Source: Nitrososphaeria archaeon (lineage in GTDB: Archaea > Thermoproteota > Nitrososphaeria_A > Caldarchaeales > JAVZCJ01). From it: DNA of 64,000 nucleotides. Below are positions 12,869 to 62,602 of the stretch, one piece after another. The notes under the pieces were generated by a model, which had not been told where the DNA came from, made no database searches, and saw nothing but the letters and a program-made list of their open reading frames with translations. Both the position numbers and the translations under genes were made by a program. The stretch covers positions 16,479 to 80,478 of the forward strand of contig JBGVSY010000035.1 in NCBI GenBank assembly GCA_041862235.1, in the 5' to 3' direction. Numbering within the stretch: position 1 is the first letter of the stretch; every line of letters starts with the position of its first letter.

Positions 12869-12992
12869 GGGCCCGTAGCCTAGAATGGATAGGGCGGCAG
12901 CCTCCTATCCTCCTTTGCGAGAGTCAGCTGCAGAGAGGTGGGACGAGCACCCCCTCGTGGAGATCGCGGGTTCAAATCCCGCCGGGCCCGCC
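12869..12992 (+). tRNA. tRNA-Arg (anticodon CCT, tentative), about 124 nt with two introns: a canonical one at 37/38 and a second in the variable-loop region
   Basis: Acceptor GGGCCCG pairs with CGGGCCC, then G and an encoded CCA. The D arm is GCCT/GGGC, the anticodon stem GCAGC/GCTGC, the loop CUCCUA, and the T arm GCGGG-TTCAAAT-CCCGC. There are about 18 extra nt after position 37 and about 29 extra nt between the anticodon stem and the T stem. Confidence 0.65.
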
Positions 12993-40058: not shown

Positions 40059-41105
40059 GTGGGTGACTGGACGAAGTTTAAGCGGGTTATGGCTGCGGTT
40101 CAGTTGCGTGAAGCTGACCGCGTCCCCGTGGTTCCGCAGATAACCTACACCACTGCGCATATTGCTGGAGTGAATTTCTTAGATGGGTTAAAAGATCCTC
40201 AGACCATGGCGCGATTGCTGGTCACAGGTTTCCGGTTAGCTGGATATGACGGGGTCTATGTCGGTTGGGAGTCCTCTTTCGACCTTGTAGCAGAAGCTAT
40301 GGGATGTAAACTGGAGTTCAAGCCGGACGGGATACCGGTAGTGAGAGAAAGAGTCGTCAAGAACAAGGAAGACGTGAAGCTGTTGCAGGTAGTAGACCCT
40401 GAGAGCAGCGGCAGGATTCCGGTTCACCTTAAGGCCATTCAGCTCGTGAGAGAACAGATTGGAACTAGCGTCCCTATTTTCAGATATGTGCCAGGCCCAT
40501 TAACCTTAGCTGGCGCACTCATAGGGCCAGAAAAAATGTTGGTGAGTCTCATTAAGGATCCTTCTTTCATCCGCCAGGCCTTGGAACCCGCAACCGAGTC
40601 CACCATTAGATTTGCTGCTGCCGCTGTCAAGTATGGATCTGATATCATCGTGGTCGCTGATCCCATAGCTTCTACTACTGTGATCTCACCGCGAATGTTT
40701 AAGGAGTTTGCTTACCCTTCGTTGTGTCAAGTAGTAGAAAGAGTATTGGAGGTTGGAGGTATACCGTCTCTGCACATTTGTGGAAAGACAGAGTCCATAC
40801 TTGAAGAGATGACGCGTACAGGGAGCAAGATACTGGAGTTAGACCACTCGGTAGATCTTGCAGTGGCAAAGGCTAGGATCGGCACGCGAGTTTGCATCCA
40901 AGGTAACTTGAATCCAACCGGTGTCTTGCTAACAGGTGACTCAAAGGATGTCGAGGCAGAGTCTCGAATATGTATCGAAAAGGCTTCGAAGCACGGAGGG
41001 TTCATACTTAGTTCTGGCTGTGAAGTACCACTACGCGCGTCCCTGCAAAACATCAAGGCTATAGTCTCTGCTGCTGAGAGGTTTGGTGTTTATCGAGATG
41101 CCTAG
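40059..41105 (+). CDS. URO-D-family methylcobamide methyltransferase (MtaA/MtbA-like)
   Basis: Uroporphyrinogen-decarboxylase fold, 348 aa, directly upstream of a corrinoid protein and an MttB homologue. A likely start lies at 40089. Confidence 0.65.
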   Translation: MGDWTKFKRVMAAVQLREADRVPVVPQITYTTAHIAGVNFLDGLKDPQTMARLLVTGFRLAGYDGVYVGWESSFDLVAEAMGCKLEFKPDGIPVVRERVVKNKEDVKLLQVVDPESSGRIPVHLKAIQLVREQIGTSVPIFRYVPGPLTLAGALIGPEKMLVSLIKDPSFIRQALEPATESTIRFAAAAVKYGSDIIVVADPIASTTVISPRMFKEFAYPSLCQVVERVLEVGGIPSLHICGKTESILEEMTRTGSKILELDHSVDLAVAKARIGTRVCIQGNLNPTGVLLTGDSKDVEAESRICIEKASKHGGFILSSGCEVPLRASLQNIKAIVSAAERFGVYRDA

Positions 41106-41115
41106 GAACTTCATG

Positions 41116-41772
41116 AGAATGAAGGAGAATGAACTGTTCAGTGAGATTCGTCGAGCTGTGATCGGCTACGATGAGAAGACAGCCGTGCAAACTGTGAAGA
41201 AGACAGTGGAACTTGGAATGAGCCCCAAGCGAGTGTTGGAGGAGGCATTAATACCTGGCATACAGGAGGTCGGCACCCTCTTTGCTCAGGAGAGAATCTT
41301 CATACCGGAAGTCATGCTCAGCGCAGAAGTCTTCAGCTTAGCCATGAAAATAATCAAGCCTGCAATCCTTAGCAAGGGAGAAGAGGTGGAGAACCTTGGA
41401 ACCGTTTTGATAGGAACTGTTGCGGGTGATGTCCATGACTTGGGAAAGAGCTTGGTAGCCACCTTGCTTACGGTCGCGGGGTTCGAGGTGTTCGACCTGG
41501 GAATAGATGTCTCGACCGAACTGTTTGTTAAAAAAGTGAGAGAGCTAAACCCAGACGTTCTGGCACTAAGCGCTCTTATGAGCACGACTATGCTTGAACA
41601 ACGCGAGGTGATAAGAAGTCTGAAAAAGCAAGGACTGCGAGACAAAGTCAGAGTAATTGTTGGCGGCGCTCCAGTCACGAATGATTGGTCCACTCAAATC
41701 GGAGCGGATGGATATGCTCCTAATGCTCATGAAGCTGTTGAATTAGTTAAGAGAATTCTAAGAGAACGCTAA
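41116..41772 (+). CDS. Corrinoid (B12-binding) protein, MtaC/MttC-like
   Basis: B12-binding motif GDVHDLGKSLV (DxHxxG) with a downstream SALMSTTM and G-G motif. The tracked ORF starts at 41083, overlapping mtaA. Confidence 0.8.
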   Translation, partial: RMKENELFSEIRRAVIGYDEKTAVQTVKKTVELGMSPKRVLEEALIPGIQEVGTLFAQERIFIPEVMLSAEVFSLAMKIIKPAILSKGEEVENLGTVLIGTVAGDVHDLGKSLVATLLTVAGFEVFDLGIDVSTELFVKKVRELNPDVLALSALMSTTMLEQREVIRSLKKQGLRDKVRVIVGGAPVTNDWSTQIGADGYAPNAHEAVELVKRILRER

Positions 41773-41784
41773 CTGTGAATAAAT

Positions 41785-43254
41785 ATGGATGAGCGTGGTG
41801 TAAAGAATAGGCCCAACCTGAGGTTGCTGTCGAATGAGGTCATAGAGCGAATCCATGAGTCCTCTATTCGGTTGCTTGCGGACATAGGAGTAACAGTAGA
41901 AAGCCGTGAAGCTTTGGATATCCTAAGAGAAGGAGGTGCCAAGGTCGACGAAGTGAAGAGAAACGTAAAGATTCCTTCATCTTTAATCGAGGAAACATTG
42001 AGGAAGGCTCCTCATAGATTAACCATCTACAGCCGCGATAGAAGACATGATCTCAACCTTGCAGAAAACAACGTTTATTTTGATCCTGGATCAGCGGCTA
42101 TATCCATCTTTGATTATAGCAAGGCTTCACCAAGACCTCCCGCTCTCAAGGACGTAAAGGACTTCGCTGTTGTTGTGGATTCATTGAAGAATATTCATGC
42201 TCAAAGCACAGCACTAGTGCCAATGGATATGCCAGAGACTATGAGGGACAGGATTCGTCTCTATGTTGTTCTGAAGTACTCGACGAAGCCTATCGTAACT
42301 GGGGCCTTTACTGTTGATGGAATTTCAGACATGAAACACATGCTTGACATTGTTTCAGATAGCGGGTCAAAGAAGGCGGGGGCTATGGCTATTTTCGATG
42401 TTTGTCCGTCACCTCCCTTGAAGTGGAGTCACCTAGCTGCCAAGAATGTGATTGATTGTGCTGAAGCGGGTCTGCCCGTTGAGTTGGTCTCTATGCCCCA
42501 GATCTCGGCGACAGCACCAGCCACTCTCGCTGGGTGCCTAGTGCAACATAACGCTGAGGTGCTTTCAGGAATAGCGTTGGCTCAATTAGCATATCCCGGA
42601 ACACCAGTTATCTATGGGGGATCTCCCGCACTATTCGATCCGCGATACGGTACATCGGTAATGGGTTCTCCAGAAGTGTTACTTCTGTCCTGTGGATACG
42701 TAGATATGGCTAAACACTATGGACTACCCAGCCACGCCTACCTCGGTATGAGCGACGCCAAAGTGATTGATTACCAAGCTGGTTTCGAAAGCGCATTCGG
42801 GGCTTTGATGGGTGCTTTGAAAGGGATAAACATCATTTCTGGCGCAGGTATGATCGAGTTTGAGTCTTGTCAAAGTTTGGAGAAACTGGTGCTTGATGAT
42901 GAGATATGTGGTTATGTACATAGGGTTGCCACAGGCATCGACGTGACTGAGGAGACTCTAGCCAACCAAATCTTTCAAGAGTGTGTGGCAAAGGGACATT
43001 TCCTTTCACATAAGCATACAGTCAGGTGGCTAAGAAGAGAGCAATACATACCAAGTGAGTTGGTTGACCGCAGGGATAGGAGCATGTGGAGAGCTCTCGG
43101 TAGGCTTGATGCCCTGAAACGAGCACGAACACGAGTGGAACAAATACTCTCTGACCATCAACCGGAACCTCTAGAGCCCGACATCGAGAAAGAACTCACC
43201 CGTTTTGCCGTTTCGATCTGTAGATCACATGGAGTCCCCCGCCTGACACTCTAA
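41785..43254 (+). CDS. MttB-superfamily methyltransferase (trimethylamine/quaternary-amine:corrinoid methyltransferase family) without pyrrolysine
   Basis: Uninterrupted 489-aa ORF of MttB length and context, with no in-frame TAG. Confidence 0.7.
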   Translation: MDERGVKNRPNLRLLSNEVIERIHESSIRLLADIGVTVESREALDILREGGAKVDEVKRNVKIPSSLIEETLRKAPHRLTIYSRDRRHDLNLAENNVYFDPGSAAISIFDYSKASPRPPALKDVKDFAVVVDSLKNIHAQSTALVPMDMPETMRDRIRLYVVLKYSTKPIVTGAFTVDGISDMKHMLDIVSDSGSKKAGAMAIFDVCPSPPLKWSHLAAKNVIDCAEAGLPVELVSMPQISATAPATLAGCLVQHNAEVLSGIALAQLAYPGTPVIYGGSPALFDPRYGTSVMGSPEVLLLSCGYVDMAKHYGLPSHAYLGMSDAKVIDYQAGFESAFGALMGALKGINIISGAGMIEFESCQSLEKLVLDDEICGYVHRVATGIDVTEETLANQIFQECVAKGHFLSHKHTVRWLRREQYIPSELVDRRDRSMWRALGRLDALKRARTRVEQILSDHQPEPLEPDIEKELTRFAVSICRSHGVPRLTL

Positions 43255-45517: not shown

Positions 45518-45766
45518 ATGAGAGTTAAAGTGGTTCCTGCAGTGGGTGGGGGAGAGCCGCTTGAGCTTGAAGTGGCGCCTACAGCTACTGTGGCAGCCGT
45601 TAAGGCGAAGGTGTGCAGCATCAAACGTCTACCTGAGGATGTGACACGGCTAACCTACAGAGGACGAGCACTGAAGGAGACGGAGACCCTGTCAGAGATT
45701 GGTGTAGAGGATGGAGACAGGTTAGTTCTCCTCACTCGAACCGGCGGCGCGGCTTTACTTAGATGA
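45518..45766 (+). CDS. Ubiquitin-like protein (beta-grasp) ending ...TRTGG followed by a 5-residue tail (AALLR)
   Basis: Alignable along its length with eukaryotic ubiquitin: LEVAPTATVAAVKAKV against LEVEPSDTIENVKAKI, and RLVLLTRTGG against LHLVLRLRGG. Confidence 0.7.
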   Translation: MRVKVVPAVGGGEPLELEVAPTATVAAVKAKVCSIKRLPEDVTRLTYRGRALKETETLSEIGVEDGDRLVLLTRTGGAALLR

Positions 45767-54311: not shown

Positions 54312-55187
54312 TTGAGTAAGGAAGGCGAAAAGGAGAGGCAAGCTTTGTTGCCCTCGCCTTCGTTGGCGGTGGAAGCGGGATTGGTTGTGGGGACCCTGGG
54401 GGTAATATCATATCTGTCGAGGGTGGTTGATAGGCAGGGGCTTCTTGCTGGACTGCTCGTAGGTTATGTCACCTATGCGTTTGGCGGAAGGTTTCTGTTT
54501 CTACCCATGGTCGTTTTCCACGTTATAGCTGGAGTGTCTACGAAGTACAAGTATGATGTGAAGAGAGAGAAGGGAGTCGCTGAGGAGAAGATGGGGGCAC
54601 GGGGATGGTGGAATGTGCTGGCAAATGGGGCCGTAGCAGCCGCCTTCGCTTTTGGAAGCGGGGTCAGTGGGAGTTCCGTCAATCTGGTGTGGTTAGCGGG
54701 TTTCTTGGGCGCGATAGGAACGGCGGCGGCGGACACTGTGGCTACAGAGATTGGACTACTTTCTAGGAAACCGCCGCGCTTGATAACTGATCTGAAGACG
54801 AGGGTTCCTCCAGGTACGTCGGGAGGCGTGTCTGTGTTGGGAGAGTCAGCCCAGATCGTGAGCTCGGTCTTGACAAGCGCAGCGGTCGTCATATTCATCC
54901 CGTCTGCGGATTTTGCTAGGTGGGTTTTCGGGGTAACGGTGGTTTCTAGCTTCGTGGGGTCCACGCTGGATAGTGTAATTGGAGCGACTGTGCAGGGGAT
55001 TTTTAGATGTGAGGTTTGCCAGGGAACAACGGAGAAGAGGGTTCATTGTGGTAGGAAGACGGTTCACGTTAGAGGCAGTCCTTCGATCGACAACAACGTC
55101 GTGAACCTGTTGGCCACAGCGTTCGGTGCCGCGGTGGCAATAGCCTTGCATTTGTTAGGAGTGTTCGGGTTTGCTTTTAGGGTCTGA
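54312..55187 (+). CDS. DUF92/TMEM19-family integral membrane protein
   Basis: Multiple transmembrane helices with G-rich motifs (GGR, ANGAVAAAFA) and a C-terminal CEVCQGTTEKRVHCG zinc-ribbon-like tail. Confidence 0.55.
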   Translation: MSKEGEKERQALLPSPSLAVEAGLVVGTLGVISYLSRVVDRQGLLAGLLVGYVTYAFGGRFLFLPMVVFHVIAGVSTKYKYDVKREKGVAEEKMGARGWWNVLANGAVAAAFAFGSGVSGSSVNLVWLAGFLGAIGTAAADTVATEIGLLSRKPPRLITDLKTRVPPGTSGGVSVLGESAQIVSSVLTSAAVVIFIPSADFARWVFGVTVVSSFVGSTLDSVIGATVQGIFRCEVCQGTTEKRVHCGRKTVHVRGSPSIDNNVVNLLATAFGAAVAIALHLLGVFGFAFRV

Positions 55188-55341
55188 CCGAGCAATACGA
55201 GAAGGAAGCCCGCAAGCATTGCCGAAGACCCTTTGGCTCGAGAGGCCAGTTGACGGACGAAGATGGTTGAGGATCGAGAAGGGGGACGCTTCGGCCACGA
55301 CCAGGACCCCAACCTGGGCATCAGCCTCTTCGATGGGTCCC

Positions 55342-55572
55342 TCAGAGATAGAACACCGGACGATCGATGCCTCGAACACGGTTAAAGTCCTTCAAGGGGT
55401 CAGCCGCCTTGGCGTTGTTGGCTGTCCTGACAGTGTCCAGATAGATTTCTACCCTTGACCAAAAACGCCACAGTTGCCGCGTCTCCACGTGGAACAGGCG
55501 TCGAGCCCACTCCCGGTCAGGCAGCGTAAGCATGACTACCCCGTTGTCGGTGACGACACACTTCTCAGCCAC
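55342..55572 (-). CDS. Small hypothetical protein (76 aa, GTG start) immediately downstream of the RHH gene
   Basis: Its start lies 1 nt after the TAA stop of the upstream RHH gene. Confidence 0.35.
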   Translation of the reverse strand: MAEKCVVTDNGVVMLTLPDREWARRLFHVETRQLWRFWSRVEIYLDTVRTANNAKAADPLKDFNRVRGIDRPVFYL

Positions 55573-55573
55573 G

Positions 55574-55906
55574 TTATTCACCAACCTCCTCGAGCAGCTG
55601 ACGCGCTCGCTCACGCAGCTTGACAATCTCGTCTAGGGTAATCCTGAGTTTCTCGTAGGTGGCCTTCTTGGTGGCAACACCTTGGCGCACTAGGTATGCC
55701 ACCGCTTCACTTCTGCTGCCATACAGACCCAGTCCAACCAACACATCCACTAACTCCAAGTCGTGATCAGTCATCCTTGTCAAGACAACGTTACCTCGCT
55801 TCCTGGACGGGAGAGGAGGAAGTTCAGCTGCGAACGGACCCATCCTACTCAATTGTTGGGAGAACTCATCCTGCAAGCGCTGTAATTGGCGAGCCACCCG
55901 TCTCAC
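55574..55906 (-). CDS. RHH (CopG/NikR-like) DNA-binding protein
   Basis: NVVLTRMTDHDLELVDVLVGLGLYGSRSEAVAYLVRQGV has the RHH strand-helix-helix pattern with an SRSEA motif. Confidence 0.6.
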   Translation of the reverse strand: MRRVARQLQRLQDEFSQQLSRMGPFAAELPPLPSRKRGNVVLTRMTDHDLELVDVLVGLGLYGSRSEAVAYLVRQGVATKKATYEKLRITLDEIVKLRERARQLLEEVGE

Positions 55907-55956
55907 CTCGTCACGGAGAGGTTCTTGGTCTTCCAGCGCCTCTCTCCTCCCATCCA

Positions 55957-56044
55957 GTAATCACGTAATAATTCGTAATTGCGTAATATAAAACATTTTC
56001 TGGGCATCGTCGAAGATGATGTAACGATGTAATCGCGTAATCGC
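55957..56044. repeat. AT-rich tract with seven (C)GTAAT direct repeats, a candidate RHH operator or origin unwinding element
   Basis: cagtaatc acgtaata ttcgtaatt gcgtaatat ... atgtaacg atgtaatc gcgtaatc, lying 50-140 bp upstream of the RHH gene start. Confidence 0.5.
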
Positions 56045-56433
56045 CCTACAAGTTCACGATCTGTTTGCACCCAACTAACTTAGTCGAGTGGCCGCTGTGA
56101 ACGTCAAGCATTCTTGAGAAAAGGCGTAATTTTCCGGTTTCAGGGTGTGAGAAGGAGAAATTGAGGGCGGGTGGAAACGGACTACTTACGGCTATTAACC
56201 AAGAAGGGCGTATGTTTGAGCAATTTTGTATAAACAGTAGGAGCAAACACAAGTTGGAGAAGGTTCCTCTCTCCATGTTTTGAGTCAAAGGTCGTGCGTC
56301 GCACATGATGATGCCCAGAGAATGATGAATTACAAGCTCAGCTTGGAGCTTGCGCCCCGAAGGTCGACCGCGAGGTCCCTCCATCACGGGGTTCACATAA
56401 AAGAACTAGTGAATCGCAGTGACTGACGAGCAC

Positions 56434-56456
56434 GTTCCACCGGAAATGAAGGGGTT
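56434..56456 (+). promoter_or_regulatory. ORB-like element 1 of the predicted oriC
   Basis: gTTCCAccGGAAAtgAAGGGGtt matches the archaeal mini-ORB/ORB pattern TTCCA-nn-GGAAA-n-GAA-GGGG. Confidence 0.6.
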
Positions 56457-56603
56457 ATTTAAATGAGCAGATCTACAGGAGAGGACCGCGTTTTGGTGCC
56501 GATCTGTATGTAGAGGATTGGAGAGAACCTTTCCTTGTACATTTGGTCACGCGGTTTGACAGGATGTGAAGGAATGTGGAAGCGGTTGTGTATGGCCACG
56601 CAA

Positions 56604-56630
56604 CCCCTCACCCCCTCGTTTCCGGTGGAG
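56604..56630 (-). promoter_or_regulatory. ORB-like element 2 of the predicted oriC, inverted relative to ORB1
   Basis: The reverse complement reads cTCCAccGGAAAcGAGGGGGtgaggg. Together with ORB1 it brackets about 147 bp about 200 bp upstream of orc1/cdc6. Confidence 0.6.
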
Positions 56631-56826
56631 GCGTCTTAACGGGAGTCCAGACATCAGAATGGCTGTGGAGATCTTCCTGTATCTTTAGGTTTAGGAAAGT
56701 GTATCATAGGTTTCTTCCGTCTTTCAGCTGTCTGACTCCCCCGAGGCTAGCTCGCTTGTCTCTCACACTATCTCACAATCAACAACTCCGCCTCGCGTTC
56801 CATGCGTCAACCAGGGGTGTCTGTCT

Positions 56827-58071
56827 TTGGAAGATCCCCTCGCCAACTTAGTCTTCAGCGCACACAGCGCCTCTCCCATATTTCTCGATAGGGAGGTTCT
56901 GCGCGCAGACTATCTTCCCTCCTCCCTGCCCCACCGCGTCGACCATCTGAGGCGCGTTGCACAGATGCTTTCGCCAGCGCTTGCTAGGTCGAGGCCGTCC
57001 AACATTTTCATCTACGGAAAGACCGGAACCGGCAAAACCGCCGTGCTCAAACGCGTTTTCGACCGCTTCTCCTCCGAAGCAAATAGGCTTCAGCGCAACG
57101 CCAGGTTTGTGTATGTCAACTGTAGGCTCTTGGGAACAGAATACCGGGTCCTAGCTGCGCTTGCCGCGGCCGTCAGGGTGCGGGTCCCCTTCACCGGCTT
57201 AGCTACAGCTGAGGTCTTCCGTCGGCTCACCTCCGGGCTCGCCAAGAGGCCAGGCTTCTTCGTGCTTGGTCTGGACGAGATCGACGCCTTAGTCAAGCTC
57301 TCAGGCGACAACCTTCTCTACGAATTGACTAGGATAAACGAGTCTCTTACCTCCTCCCGTGTGTCTCTCGTTGGTGTTTCCAACGACCTCATGTGGAAGG
57401 ACCTTCTGGGACCCCGCGTGTTAAGCAGCCTAAGTGAGCAAGAACTTGTCTTCCACCCGTACTCTGCGCTTGAATTGGCCGACATTCTAAGGGAGCGTGC
57501 TCGGCCAGCTTTCAGACAGAGCGCCATTTCAGATTCAGTGATAGCTCTCTGCGCGGCTCTGGCCGCGTCTGAGCATGGCGATGCACGCCGAGCGCTCGAT
57601 CTTCTCAGGGTGTCCGGCGAAGTTGCTGAGCGCGACCAGTCAACTGCTGTCAGTGAGAAACATGTGCGTATGGCCCAAGGTGTCATCGAGCGAGGCAGAG
57701 TTTTCGAAGCTCTCACCTCGCTGCCACTTCATTCTCGGATGGTTCTGGCATCAATTCTCTCCCTAAGTCGCCAAGGCTGCGATGTTACGTCCGGGACCGT
57801 TCACTCAACATACAAGGACTTCTGCAGTCTTCTCAACGTTGACCCGCTCACCCAGCGCCGAGTCAGCGGCCTAATATCTGAGCTGGATATGATGGGCGTC
57901 TTGGGGACCAAGCTAATCAGCTTTGGTCGATACGGCAGGACAAAGAAACTCAAGCTCCTCGTCCCCATTGATGACGTCGCCTCGGTCTTAGAGTGCGATG
58001 AACTCCTCTCACCAGTGCTTACGCATCCTCCCCCGAACACAACTCCACAATATTCTGACAAACACCTCTGA
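56827..58071 (+). CDS. orc1: Orc1/Cdc6 replication initiator (apparent TTG start)
   Basis: N-terminal ...LRADYLPSSLPHRVDHL, Walker A GKTGTGKT, Walker B FVLGLDEIDAL, and a C-terminal winged helix. Confidence 0.85.
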   Translation: MEDPLANLVFSAHSASPIFLDREVLRADYLPSSLPHRVDHLRRVAQMLSPALARSRPSNIFIYGKTGTGKTAVLKRVFDRFSSEANRLQRNARFVYVNCRLLGTEYRVLAALAAAVRVRVPFTGLATAEVFRRLTSGLAKRPGFFVLGLDEIDALVKLSGDNLLYELTRINESLTSSRVSLVGVSNDLMWKDLLGPRVLSSLSEQELVFHPYSALELADILRERARPAFRQSAISDSVIALCAALAASEHGDARRALDLLRVSGEVAERDQSTAVSEKHVRMAQGVIERGRVFEALTSLPLHSRMVLASILSLSRQGCDVTSGTVHSTYKDFCSLLNVDPLTQRRVSGLISELDMMGVLGTKLISFGRYGRTKKLKLLVPIDDVASVLECDELLSPVLTHPPPNTTPQYSDKHL

Positions 58072-58197: not shown

Positions 58198-58953
58198 CTA
58201 TGGCGGTTCGTAAACAAATCGGGTTCTCTTTTTCCCGCTTCTTCTTGATACATATTGGACCCGCCTCGGTCTCTCATAGTCATGTTCTGGTGCCTCGACT
58301 GCTGTACGGGTCCAATAGGCTTTTCCTCGGGTGTCCCATAGTATAGCGTTGATCAAGCCCTTCTCGTATTGCTGGACATCAAGTTCTCCCCTCATGCGCT
58401 TCACTATCTCGAACGGGAGTCTAACTTGCCGTATCGCCCTTGAAAGACTTAGACGGAACGTCCGCGGATTCAGCGACCTCAGTTCCTTCCCCTGCGGAGA
58501 CCACCAGAGTGCAACCAACTGTTCAAAAAACTCATCGCGCCGCCTTCTCTCAGCCCTGCTTTGGGGCCGTGAAATGAGTTTGGCCCATGCTATCGCTCTG
58601 AGAGGTGGCTCGTCCACATCATCCTCCCTTATCTCATAAACAACTCTCCTTCCGCTTTTGCTCTTGGAAACCAGACCTCTAGAAAGAAGGTGTCCGAGGG
58701 TTCTCCAGACTGTGTTTCTCGCTAGCTCAGTCTCTCTGACCAGCCGATCAAACCAAGTTGGCCCCTTAGACAAGACCCGATGCACTTTGAGAGTGCTTCT
58801 TGCTGAGGGTCCACGCGGCCTACCTCTGGACCTTCTCACACCTGAACCCGTATCAATAAATTCGCTGTTCCGGATATACTTATTGAGGCAAACTTCTTCT
58901 TTCTTGACGGGATGCCAACGTATTAGACAGAATTGTATTGCACACGTCATCAT
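58198..58953 (-). CDS. Hypothetical basic protein with a winged-helix and AT-hook (RGRPRGP)
   Basis: 251 aa, with the HTH-like segment TWFDRLVRETELARNTVWRTLGHLLSRGLV and an RGRPRG AT-hook. Confidence 0.45.
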   Translation of the reverse strand: MMTCAIQFCLIRWHPVKKEEVCLNKYIRNSEFIDTGSGVRRSRGRPRGPSARSTLKVHRVLSKGPTWFDRLVRETELARNTVWRTLGHLLSRGLVSKSKSGRRVVYEIREDDVDEPPLRAIAWAKLISRPQSRAERRRRDEFFEQLVALWWSPQGKELRSLNPRTFRLSLSRAIRQVRLPFEIVKRMRGELDVQQYEKGLINAILWDTRGKAYWTRTAVEAPEHDYERPRRVQYVSRRSGKKRTRFVYEPP

Positions 58954-62023: not shown

Positions 62024-62602
62024 TCAAACGTTGATCAGTTCGACGAGGGCAGACAAATAGTAGACTATCTCGTTTCGACGATCCACGACCGACAGAATCA
62101 CCTTCTTCTTTAGCGCTCTGGAAACAGCAAGAAGGTGTTTTAGGCTTTCCGCACCGACATTTTTTCCCTCTACCACGGGCACCACTAAGAACTTTGCGGT
62201 GTCGGTTTCGTAAGATCCCCTCTCGAACACTCGAAACCTGAAGTCTGGACCGAAGCCTTCCTTTACTACATAGCCTCGCTTCCTGAGATCCCTGAAGACT
62301 ACATAGTCTGTCCAGATGTTTGGACTATTCGATCGATCGATCGATAGAAGTTGGTTGAAGTTTACGGTGTCTTTGTTTTTATCGGTAACTTCGATTTTCT
62401 GTCTTTCTAGCAGGTACAATGCCTCACAGGGGTGGAGAACTATCTTTCCGGTATGTTCATCTTTTTCTCCGTATCCTCTAGCAAGGTATGCGCTGCTTAG
62501 CTCGGTTATCTCTGCAGTTATCGTATCTCCGTCTAGGTGGACCGTGAAGGGTTGTTCCGGTAACTCTGTTTCCTGCTTGCCCACCTTTCTTCTCCAGATC
62601 AT
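62024..62602 (-). CDS. endA: tRNA-splicing endonuclease (EndA) catalytic subunit
   Basis: C-terminal catalytic-domain pattern YVVFRDLRKRGYVVKEGFGPDFRFRVFERG, 192 aa. Confidence 0.65.
   Translation of the reverse strand: MIWRRKVGKQETELPEQPFTVHLDGDTITAEITELSSAYLARGYGEKDEHTGKIVLHPCEALYLLERQKIEVTDKNKDTVNFNQLLSIDRSNSPNIWTDYVVFRDLRKRGYVVKEGFGPDFRFRVFERGSYETDTAKFLVVPVVEGKNVGAESLKHLLAVSRALKKKVILSVVDRRNEIVYYLSALVELINV

Follow-up and report, generated by a model that had tools for sequence, protein, structure and literature searches.

A predicted oriC1-type replication origin upstream of orc1/cdc6 in an uncultured TACK archaeon

Introduction

Chromosomal origins that pair an Orc1-1 initiator with origin recognition boxes (ORBs) are an already known kind, described in Sulfolobus, Aeropyrum, Pyrococcus, and the haloarchaea, and it is to this kind that the locus presented here would belong. 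The DNA in question is a 64,000-nucleotide (nt) stretch (hereafter, the window) from an uncultured Nitrososphaeria archaeon (GenBank assembly GCA_041862235.1, contig JBGVSY010000035.1, positions 16,479 to 80,478 of the forward strand), and our interest is in the non-coding gap that lies directly upstream of its orc1/cdc6 initiator gene. Taken as a whole, positions 56435-56826 are best explained as an oriC1-type chromosomal replication origin of this TACK archaeon, a reading to which we would give a probability of about 0.8 on the basis of sequence comparisons. Mildly new to the kind are the fixed spacing of a + - + triad of boxes, the combination of a decayed gene-proximal box with weak A+T richness, and three invariant elements that are as yet unexplained.

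Among the described systems, the oriC1 of Sulfolobus islandicus contains ORB2 and ORB3 as inverted boxes that flank an A+T-rich element, with each of the two being required in vivo (PMC12141716). Oligonucleotide P23 in the supplement of the same paper carries the left box (ATCTCCAATGGAACCGAAGGGGTGT) on the bottom strand and the right box (ATCTCCAAATGAAATACTGGGGTAGG) on the top strand, and therefore the G-strings of this pair point away from the unwinding element, while the dyads face it. Judging from oligonucleotides P21 and P23, an ATG situated ~13 nt past the right box is probably the orc1-1 start. The same layout, with outward G-strings, appears to hold for the oriC1 of Haloarcula hispanica, as read from the labels of the mutated C-run and G-run (PMC3936714). 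Each halophile box has its essential G-string on the outer side, and it is the AAA+ domain of the initiator that recognizes this string (PMC3936714).

Origin recognition boxes upstream of orc1

The gap extends over 920 nt, from the GTG (55906) of a small minus-strand gene to the TTG (56827) of the plus-strand orc1 gene; an initial annotation of the window had drawn attention to it, albeit with a length of 880 bp. Two full boxes are located within this gap, these being ORB-a (TTCCACCGGAAATGAAGGGGT; 56435-56455, plus strand, -391 from the orc1 start) and ORB-b (TCCACCGGAAACGAGGGGGTGAGGGG; 56604-56629, minus strand, -198), the latter of which has a second G-run. When a weight matrix built from the ORB sites of other genomes was run over the window, ORB-b scored 21.5 bits and ORB-a 17.1 bits, with the runner-up anywhere in the window at 6.0 bits. 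In terms of sequence, TTCCACCGGAAATGAAGGGG occupies 56435-56454 (plus strand) and TCCACCGGAAACGAGGGGG is read on the minus strand at 56611-56629. ORB-a and ORB-b are 90% complementary over 20 nt, forming an inverted repeat with 154 nt between its arms and with its G-strings facing inward. Moreover, the 11-mer TCCACCGGAAA is present in exact form at two places in the 64 kb, one in each box of this pair. The two oppositely oriented ORB matches of the initial annotation are thus confirmed as exact, inverted, and unique in the window by both 11-mer and matrix, and so is the inward direction of their G-strings, though the distance between them had been put at ~147 bp. The ORB motif search that had been advised along with these matches gave, on the 64 kb, no equally good match elsewhere.

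Overlooked in that annotation was a third ORB skeleton. The window contains three copies of TCCA-N11-GGGGT against an expectation of 0.53, all of them in the gap, in + - + order and no more than 394 nt before orc1. The third of them, ORB-c (TCCATGCGTCAACCAGGGGT; 56799-56818, plus strand, -28, 3.7 bits), is a degenerate box with 8 nt between its end and the start codon of orc1, and while TCCA and GGGGT are retained at the canonical 11-nt distance, the GGAAA half has been lost. A different "third core" had been proposed at 56165-56182. The string GGGTGGAAACGG does exist there (56169-56180), though with neither the TCCA half nor a G-string, and the matrix maximum in its vicinity is -12 bits or lower. 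We therefore rejected this candidate (GTGGAAAC), which is at most a chance half-match and is conserved in the nearest relative (L082) only.

The Orc1 initiator

The orc1/cdc6 gene (56827-58071, plus strand) codes for a 414-residue protein of Orc1-1 type from a TTG start, with AAA+, Cdc6 lid, and Cdc6 winged-helix domains (Pfam AAA_22, Cdc6_lid, and Cdc6_C). Among solved structures, S. solfataricus Orc1-1 (2QBY_A, 4.9e-114) and Aeropyrum pernix ORC1 (2V1U, 2.6e-103) come closest, whereas Orc1-3 (1.8e-47), P. aerophilum Cdc6, and A. pernix ORC2 are far weaker matches, which therefore places the window gene in the Orc1-1 group. The protein also matches TIGR02928 above its cut-off (386.9 bits), and the narrower equivalog NF001625 with 447.7 bits, under the cut-off of 501. 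By sequence relationship, then, the gene is an Orc1-1 orthologue. In the alignment with the solved structures, the DNA-contact motifs are kept, these comprising PFTGL (initiator-specific motif), TQRRVS (recognition helix), and GRYG (wing). From an offset-mapped residue numbering, we infer that these motifs contain G120/L121, R341, and R365 of S. solfataricus Orc1-1, all of which are identical in the window protein and belong to the positions at which mutations weaken binding to the origin (PMC3089459). The start context of the gene (TTGGAAGATCC) is conserved in a clade of close relatives, described below, and the TTG start is therefore supported. Outside this clade, the nearest Orc1 proteins are from Aigarchaeota/Caldarchaeales genomes, at 62% identity. 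No second orc1 paralogue is present in the 64-kb window.

Distant orc1 loci

We scanned 80 distant orc1 loci, with one genome taken per species. Foremost in Orc1 identity were Aigarchaeota SKYB10 (62%), Wolframiiraptor (57%), and Caldarchaeum (57%), followed by the Bathyarchaeia with about 50%. None of the 80 loci has flanking genes in common with the window, and so, for want of synteny, the comparison rested on orc1 alone until the small gene at the other edge of the gap revealed close relatives. A strict ORB pattern (TCCA-N2-3-GGAAA-N1-8-GGG) gave 49 sites in 35 of the 80 loci, and every one of the 49 is within 660 nt upstream of orc1, with none in the remaining ~8 kb per locus. Likewise, 262 of the 271 matrix sites above 10 bits in these loci are within 900 nt upstream of orc1. 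In independent genomes, the boxes are thus placed almost exclusively upstream of orc1, and the predicted Orc1/ORB-type oriC is well supported.

The order of the boxes is + - + in 39 of the distant loci and + - + + in 26. In four loci of Aigarchaeota type (L001, L002, L003, and L030), the ORBs are found at about -380 (+), -195 (-), and -25 (+), the third one being at -23 to -26, and the window ORBs at -391, -198, and -28 parallel these positions. By comparison with the window, the boxes in the Bathyarchaeia are further upstream, while the interval between a minus-strand box and the plus-strand box after it ("-+") is similar, with a median of 165 nt. Unlike the window, the triads of the Aigarchaeota and Bathyarchaeia display a strong A+T peak (87% on average over 40 nt) in the interval that separates box two from box three, and they have unrelated flanking genes and no GTAAT array of the type described below.

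Close relatives

Homologues of the small gene, nine in number and 80-97% identical, gave access to about 15 metagenome contigs, and in these the gene order is UbiA, histidyl-tRNA synthetase (HisRS), DUF92, a 76-residue gene, the small gene, the gap, orc1, and a winged-helix regulator. Orc1 from this close clade is 81-83% identical to that of the window, and intergenic identity amounts to 76% for one contig and ~54% for the rest. Despite this divergence, ORB-a, ORB-b, and the skeleton of ORB-c are retained across the clade, and the spacing between boxes is 154 nt (a-b) in every close contig and 168-169 nt (b-c). Invariant columns comprise the core of ORB-b (alignment A1) and the TCCA and GGGGT of ORB-c.

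The most conserved islands in the alignment are ORB-a with its adjoining TTATTTAAAT, the 16-mer CCCCGAGGCTAGCTCG, the orc1 start context, and parts of the GTAAT array. In fact, ORB-a and the next 10 nt (56435-56464) make up the longest conserved intergenic island of the clade, with 97% column identity. Here, TTATTTAAAT (56455-56464) abuts the G-string of ORB-a and is invariant in all clade members; it may be TATA-like, perhaps as a TATA box that Orc1 controls, or else a short patch that melts easily. The 16-mer CCCCGAGGCTAGCTCG (56739-56754), which has a CGAG-N5-CTCG dyad and is located between ORB-b and ORB-c, is also invariant, with 98% column identity amid ~54% identical DNA; it is unique in the window and found in the close clade only. 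Many of the short clade contigs (L083-L085, L087, L089-L092, and L099) break off inside the orc1 upstream region, which may be due to a selection bias of the retrieval or to strain variation breaking the assemblies.

Polarity of the boxes and the candidate loading zone

Among the relatives, the "-+" intervals (n = 78) have a median length of 165 nt, an A+T excess of +0.17, and a best 40-mer with a mean A+T content of 87% (median 87.5%, minimum 70%), whereas the corresponding values for the "+-" intervals are 238 nt, +0.09, and 78%. The A+T peak of the relatives accordingly falls in the outward-facing "-+" interval, and this, along with the outward G-strings of S. islandicus and, putatively, H. 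hispanica, speaks against the inward-facing pair as the classic arrangement, as had initially been supposed.

In the window, the "-+" interval is the 169-nt segment between ORB-b and ORB-c (56630-56798), which has a direct repeat (TGTATCTTTAGGTTT / TGTATCATAGGTTT) at 56678-56713 and probably also holds the orc1 promoter. By analogy, this segment is the likely zone of loading and unwinding, with ORB-a as the likely counterpart of Sulfolobus ORB1, acting like it as a distal auxiliary site. Going by polarity and the relatives, ATP-bound Orc1 on ORB-b and ORB-c would recruit MCM to the 169-nt interval, across which the dyads would face inward as in the S. islandicus arrangement of ORB3, duplex unwinding element, and ORB2. 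If the solved Sulfolobus and Aeropyrum complexes are a guide, each box would take up one Orc1 monomer, with the winged-helix domain placed on the TCCA..GGAAA dyad and the initiator-specific motif of the AAA+ domain on the G-string. Moreover, with ORB-c so close to the orc1 start codon (8 nt), autoregulation of orc1 by its product is probable as well.

The GTAAT array and the divergent small operon

At the other side of the gap, a GTAAT direct-repeat array (55957-56041, plus strand) is arranged in two groups, one at 55957, 55965, 55975, and 55983 and the other at 56022, 56029, and 56037. This array, noted initially as seven GTAAT repeats in an AT-rich block, is real, and consists of plus-strand pentamers only, of which six are exact GTAAT copies and one is GTAAC (56022), with three units of the form GTAAT-N3-GTAAT. 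Shuffled windows never had more than four GTAAT copies per 100 nt. As a side observation, the window has one other pentamer cluster of such density, with five TCGAT copies within 100 nt at 62301-62420. The 40-mer at 55958-55997 is 77.5% A+T, a value equalled or exceeded by 0.0125% of the window 40-mers. Between the GTAAT groups is an invariant CGTAATATAAAA (55982-55993), which on the minus strand reads as a TATA-like TTTTATATTACG / TTTTATAT. In most close relatives, the array has 4+4 GTAAT copies with spacings of 8, 10, and 8 nt and 39-45 nt between the groups; relative to these, a 10-nt deletion has removed one unit from the window, and another unit reads GTAAC there. The pentamers and CGTAATATAAAA are invariant in the close clade, whereas the spacers vary, and such a pattern points to a protein-binding array with a TATA-like box rather than to selection on composition. 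Clusters of at least four GTAAT copies in 100 nt are absent from all 80 distant orc1 loci.

The array is 51-135 nt upstream of the GTG of the small gene (55574-55906, minus strand), whose 110-residue product is a putative ribbon-helix-helix-type DNA-binding protein. In the close relatives, this gene is always syntenic with the locus. The family matches of the protein are all sub-threshold, and include RHH_8 (E of 0.005-0.014 for three members), the AbmR C-terminal domain (8e-6), CdrS (0.012), and NikR (0.065). An AlphaFold model, with a predicted local distance difference test (pLDDT) score of 74, consists of a helix, a GLGLYGS loop, a second helix, and a long helix, and a Foldseek search with this model returned no significant match (E > 2). 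A seemingly distant homologue (L100) was set aside, as it is the C-terminal domain of a bacterial tyrosyl-tRNA synthetase and provides no informative second context; this 40% match also means that the core motif of the small protein is not diagnostic. Directly downstream, in the same operon, is a 76-residue gene (55342-55572, minus strand) that was called in every syntenic contig (70-99% identity by tblastn) and has no Pfam or NCBIfam match.

Ribbon-helix-helix repressors are known to bind short direct-repeat arrays, such as the MetJ metboxes, the omega heptads, and the ParG tetramer boxes. Similar to these operators, the window array has a period of ~8-10 nt and is placed upstream of the regulator's own gene, and the protein core is of the form helix-GxS-helix; in contrast, the pentamers come in two groups of four, the fold is putative, and no recognizable partner ATPase or toxin is at hand. 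Our somewhat preferred reading, held with only modest assurance, is that the GTAAT block serves as the promoter/operator of the divergent operon, and the array would then be bound by the operon's own small ribbon-helix-helix-like protein. With synteny in so narrow a clade, this reading and a role as an origin accessory are inseparable.

Weighing of the alternatives

Of the features that identify an oriC1 by sequence, this locus has an adjacent Orc1-1 gene and at least two ORBs with an inverted pair, which are specific to the locus within the 64 kb and conserved at orthologous loci, with a clear A+T-rich element as the exception. As for the A+T-rich element that should lie between inverted ORBs, the best 40-mer reaches 67.5% in the b-c interval and 62.5% in the a-b interval, compared with the relatives' median of 87.5%. 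Of the "classic" oriC with ORBs, unwinding element, and orc1 that had been predicted initially, an Orc1/ORB origin beside orc1 holds up, whereas the third-core site, the inward-pair layout, and the unwinding role of the GTAAT repeats do not.

Several observations count against the origin assignment. The b-c interval as a whole is 50.3% A+T, and its best 40-mer (56681-56720) is below even the 70% minimum of the relatives; the only strongly A+T-rich stretch sits outside the ORBs. Here, the b-c best 40-mer is ~2 standard deviations less stable than the window mean, and the values for the close clade (67.5-70%) and for GC-richer relatives (70-82.5%) suggest that the predicted unwinding element of the window is weak yet within the trend. 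ORB-c, moreover, lacks its GGAAA half and has a low matrix score. GC skew, which had been named as a check, gives no independent support. On this short window, the cumulative G-C maximum is at 55.5 kb, where a 16-kb run of plus-strand genes ends, and the skew by coding strand averages +0.10 for plus and -0.10 for minus genes; the peak is therefore a coding-strand effect, and we discarded GC skew as independent evidence for an origin. Those same 16 kb to the left contain plus-strand genes throughout, which would be head-on to a fork leaving the origin leftward. Lastly, for the small protein, the ribbon-helix-helix assignment comes from the sub-threshold matches, with Foldseek giving no significant one.

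Since the weak A+T content of the b-c interval is the main point against our model, some weight remains with an origin in which helicase loading and unwinding take place between ORB-a and ORB-b (56456-56609). This placement is unlikely, though it is the alternative that we take most seriously, as it would make use of the two strongest boxes in preference to a degenerate one, with an exactly conserved 154-nt spacing and the invariant TTATTTAAAT just inside ORB-a. Its polarity, however, is opposite to that of the S. islandicus oriC1 and of the putative H. hispanica layout, the "+-" intervals of the relatives are less A+T-rich than the "-+" ones, the a-b maximum in the window is the mere 62.5% noted above, and there are fewer conserved blocks than in the b-c interval. 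More improbable is that the ORBs are mere Orc1 operators for autoregulation of orc1 at a dormant or decayed origin, with the chromosome firing elsewhere. The weak A+T peak, the degenerate ORB-c, and the head-on genes to the left would suit such a state, and dormant orc1-adjacent origins are known in Haloferax mediterranei (PMC4595724). Even so, the whole triad and its spacing have been kept through ~46% intergenic divergence, no other orc1 paralogue is found in the window, and of the archaeal origins, the one adjacent to Orc1-1 is conserved most widely (PMC12141716). The b-c interval thus stays our preferred loading zone.

With regard to the GTAAT block, its 77.5% A+T 40-mer, one of the richest in the window and conserved in the close clade, would commend it as the duplex unwinding element of the origin, but this is very improbable: it is ~440 nt outside the ORB cluster with no ORBs to flank it, its conservation is that of regularly spaced pentamers instead of base composition, and the array is absent from the 80 distant loci, where the A+T peak sits between the ORBs. 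Slightly less remote, though doubtful all the same, is an origin-accessory system formed by the array and the small protein, whereby a lineage-specific factor would modulate firing in a manner conceptually like ucm/UBP. The array, small operon, and orc1 are indeed always together in the clade, and while UBP is limited to the Sulfolobales and Desulfurococcales, factors analogous to ucm/UBP in other lineages are not known (PMC12141716). Nevertheless, the co-occurrence may be plain synteny of a narrow clade, the position of the array at the small gene's own promoter can be explained by simple autoregulation, and, unlike ucm, an 11-bp motif halfway between the ORBs that flank the unwinding element, the array is outside the ORB-flanked region. 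An equally doubtful extension is that the array with the small protein, CCCCGAGGCTAGCTCG, and TTATTTAAAT are accessory-factor sites that tune firing, as a non-homologous counterpart of ucm/UBP; if true, such sites would serve a lineage in which an A+T-rich unwinding element is nearly absent from the origin.

Comparison with known origins

With the Sulfolobus (Saccharolobus) oriC1, the window shares an orthologous initiator, three ORBs, and a -/+ pair of boxes with facing dyads just upstream of the initiator gene. The distance from the gene-proximal box to the start codon is 8 nt in the window, as against the ~13 nt to the probable orc1-1 ATG in S. islandicus. The inter-ORB interval is ~169 nt and weakly A+T-rich, compared with ~100 nt in the Sulfolobus oriC1, and, also unlike the latter, the window has a gene-proximal box without the GGAAA half, has no known counterpart of ucm/UBP, and contains the invariant 16-mer and TTATTTAAAT. 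The oriC1 of A. pernix has four ORBs, arranged as two pairs around a clearly A+T-rich element. Its ORB, which we take to read roughly CTCCACAGGAAACGGAGGGGT, is very close to the window boxes, and the initiator in the ORC1-ORB4 complex (2V1U) is closely related (2.6e-103). The haloarchaeal oriC1 (H. hispanica and Haloferax volcanii) resembles the window by virtue of inverted ORBs beside the cognate cdc6 gene, and the double G-run of ORB-b (GGGGGTGAGGGG) recalls the extended halophile G-string. In contrast, the minimal halophile origin has two ORBs, a distinct A+T-rich region, and an internal G-rich inverted repeat, of which neither the distinct A+T-rich region nor the repeat is seen in the window. 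A literature search on the origins of Aigarchaeota or Caldarchaeum produced no paper.

Gene neighborhood and other observations

The genes that flank the locus are of the housekeeping type, and include HisRS, UbiA, DUF92, tRNA-intron endonuclease, and an IF-2B family protein, and the locus is therefore chromosomal. Convergent with orc1 is a gene for a winged-helix (ArsR/TrmB-like) regulator (58198-58953, minus strand), the position of which is kept in all close relatives at 72-74% identity. Within the gap, an open reading frame (ORF) of 116 residues (56046-56396, minus strand) was rejected as a gene, having no Pfam match and a single relative with 42% identity, and an Rfam scan of the gap gave no RNA family. 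Two other plus-strand ORFs (55696-55968 and 55171-55458) run antisense to conserved genes and are no more than their shadows.

An exact-match look-up with HisRS gave no result, and with another gene, part of the window was placed on the Logan contig SRR29975709_76879. By way of precomputed Pfam matches on the Logan contig (L081, 13746-13982), a 78-residue gene at ~45530-45766 (plus strand) has a ubiquitin / Rad60-SLD fold, and brings to mind the ubiquitin-like system reported for Caldarchaeum. Elsewhere, an intron-containing tRNA of 122 nt (12869-12990, plus strand) was detected with Rfam (45.3 bits), whereas ARAGORN returned no tRNA anywhere in the window. Genes for URO-D (MtaA-like), B12-binding, and MTTB-family methyltransferase proteins are clustered at 40059-43254 (plus strand), which suggests the use of methylated amines.

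Implications

The locus leaves the current picture of archaeal initiation unchanged. At the same time, in the close clade, the gene-proximal ORB and the A+T element have decayed at a fixed spacing, which points to geometry, and not base composition, as the constrained feature. For the Aigarchaeota and Bathyarchaeia, a rule emerges in which orc1-1 is immediately preceded by a + - + ORB triad whose last two boxes are ~165-170 nt apart. With its predicted placement here, the origin of an uncultured archaeal lineage would help in orienting genomes and in coverage-based estimates of growth rate.

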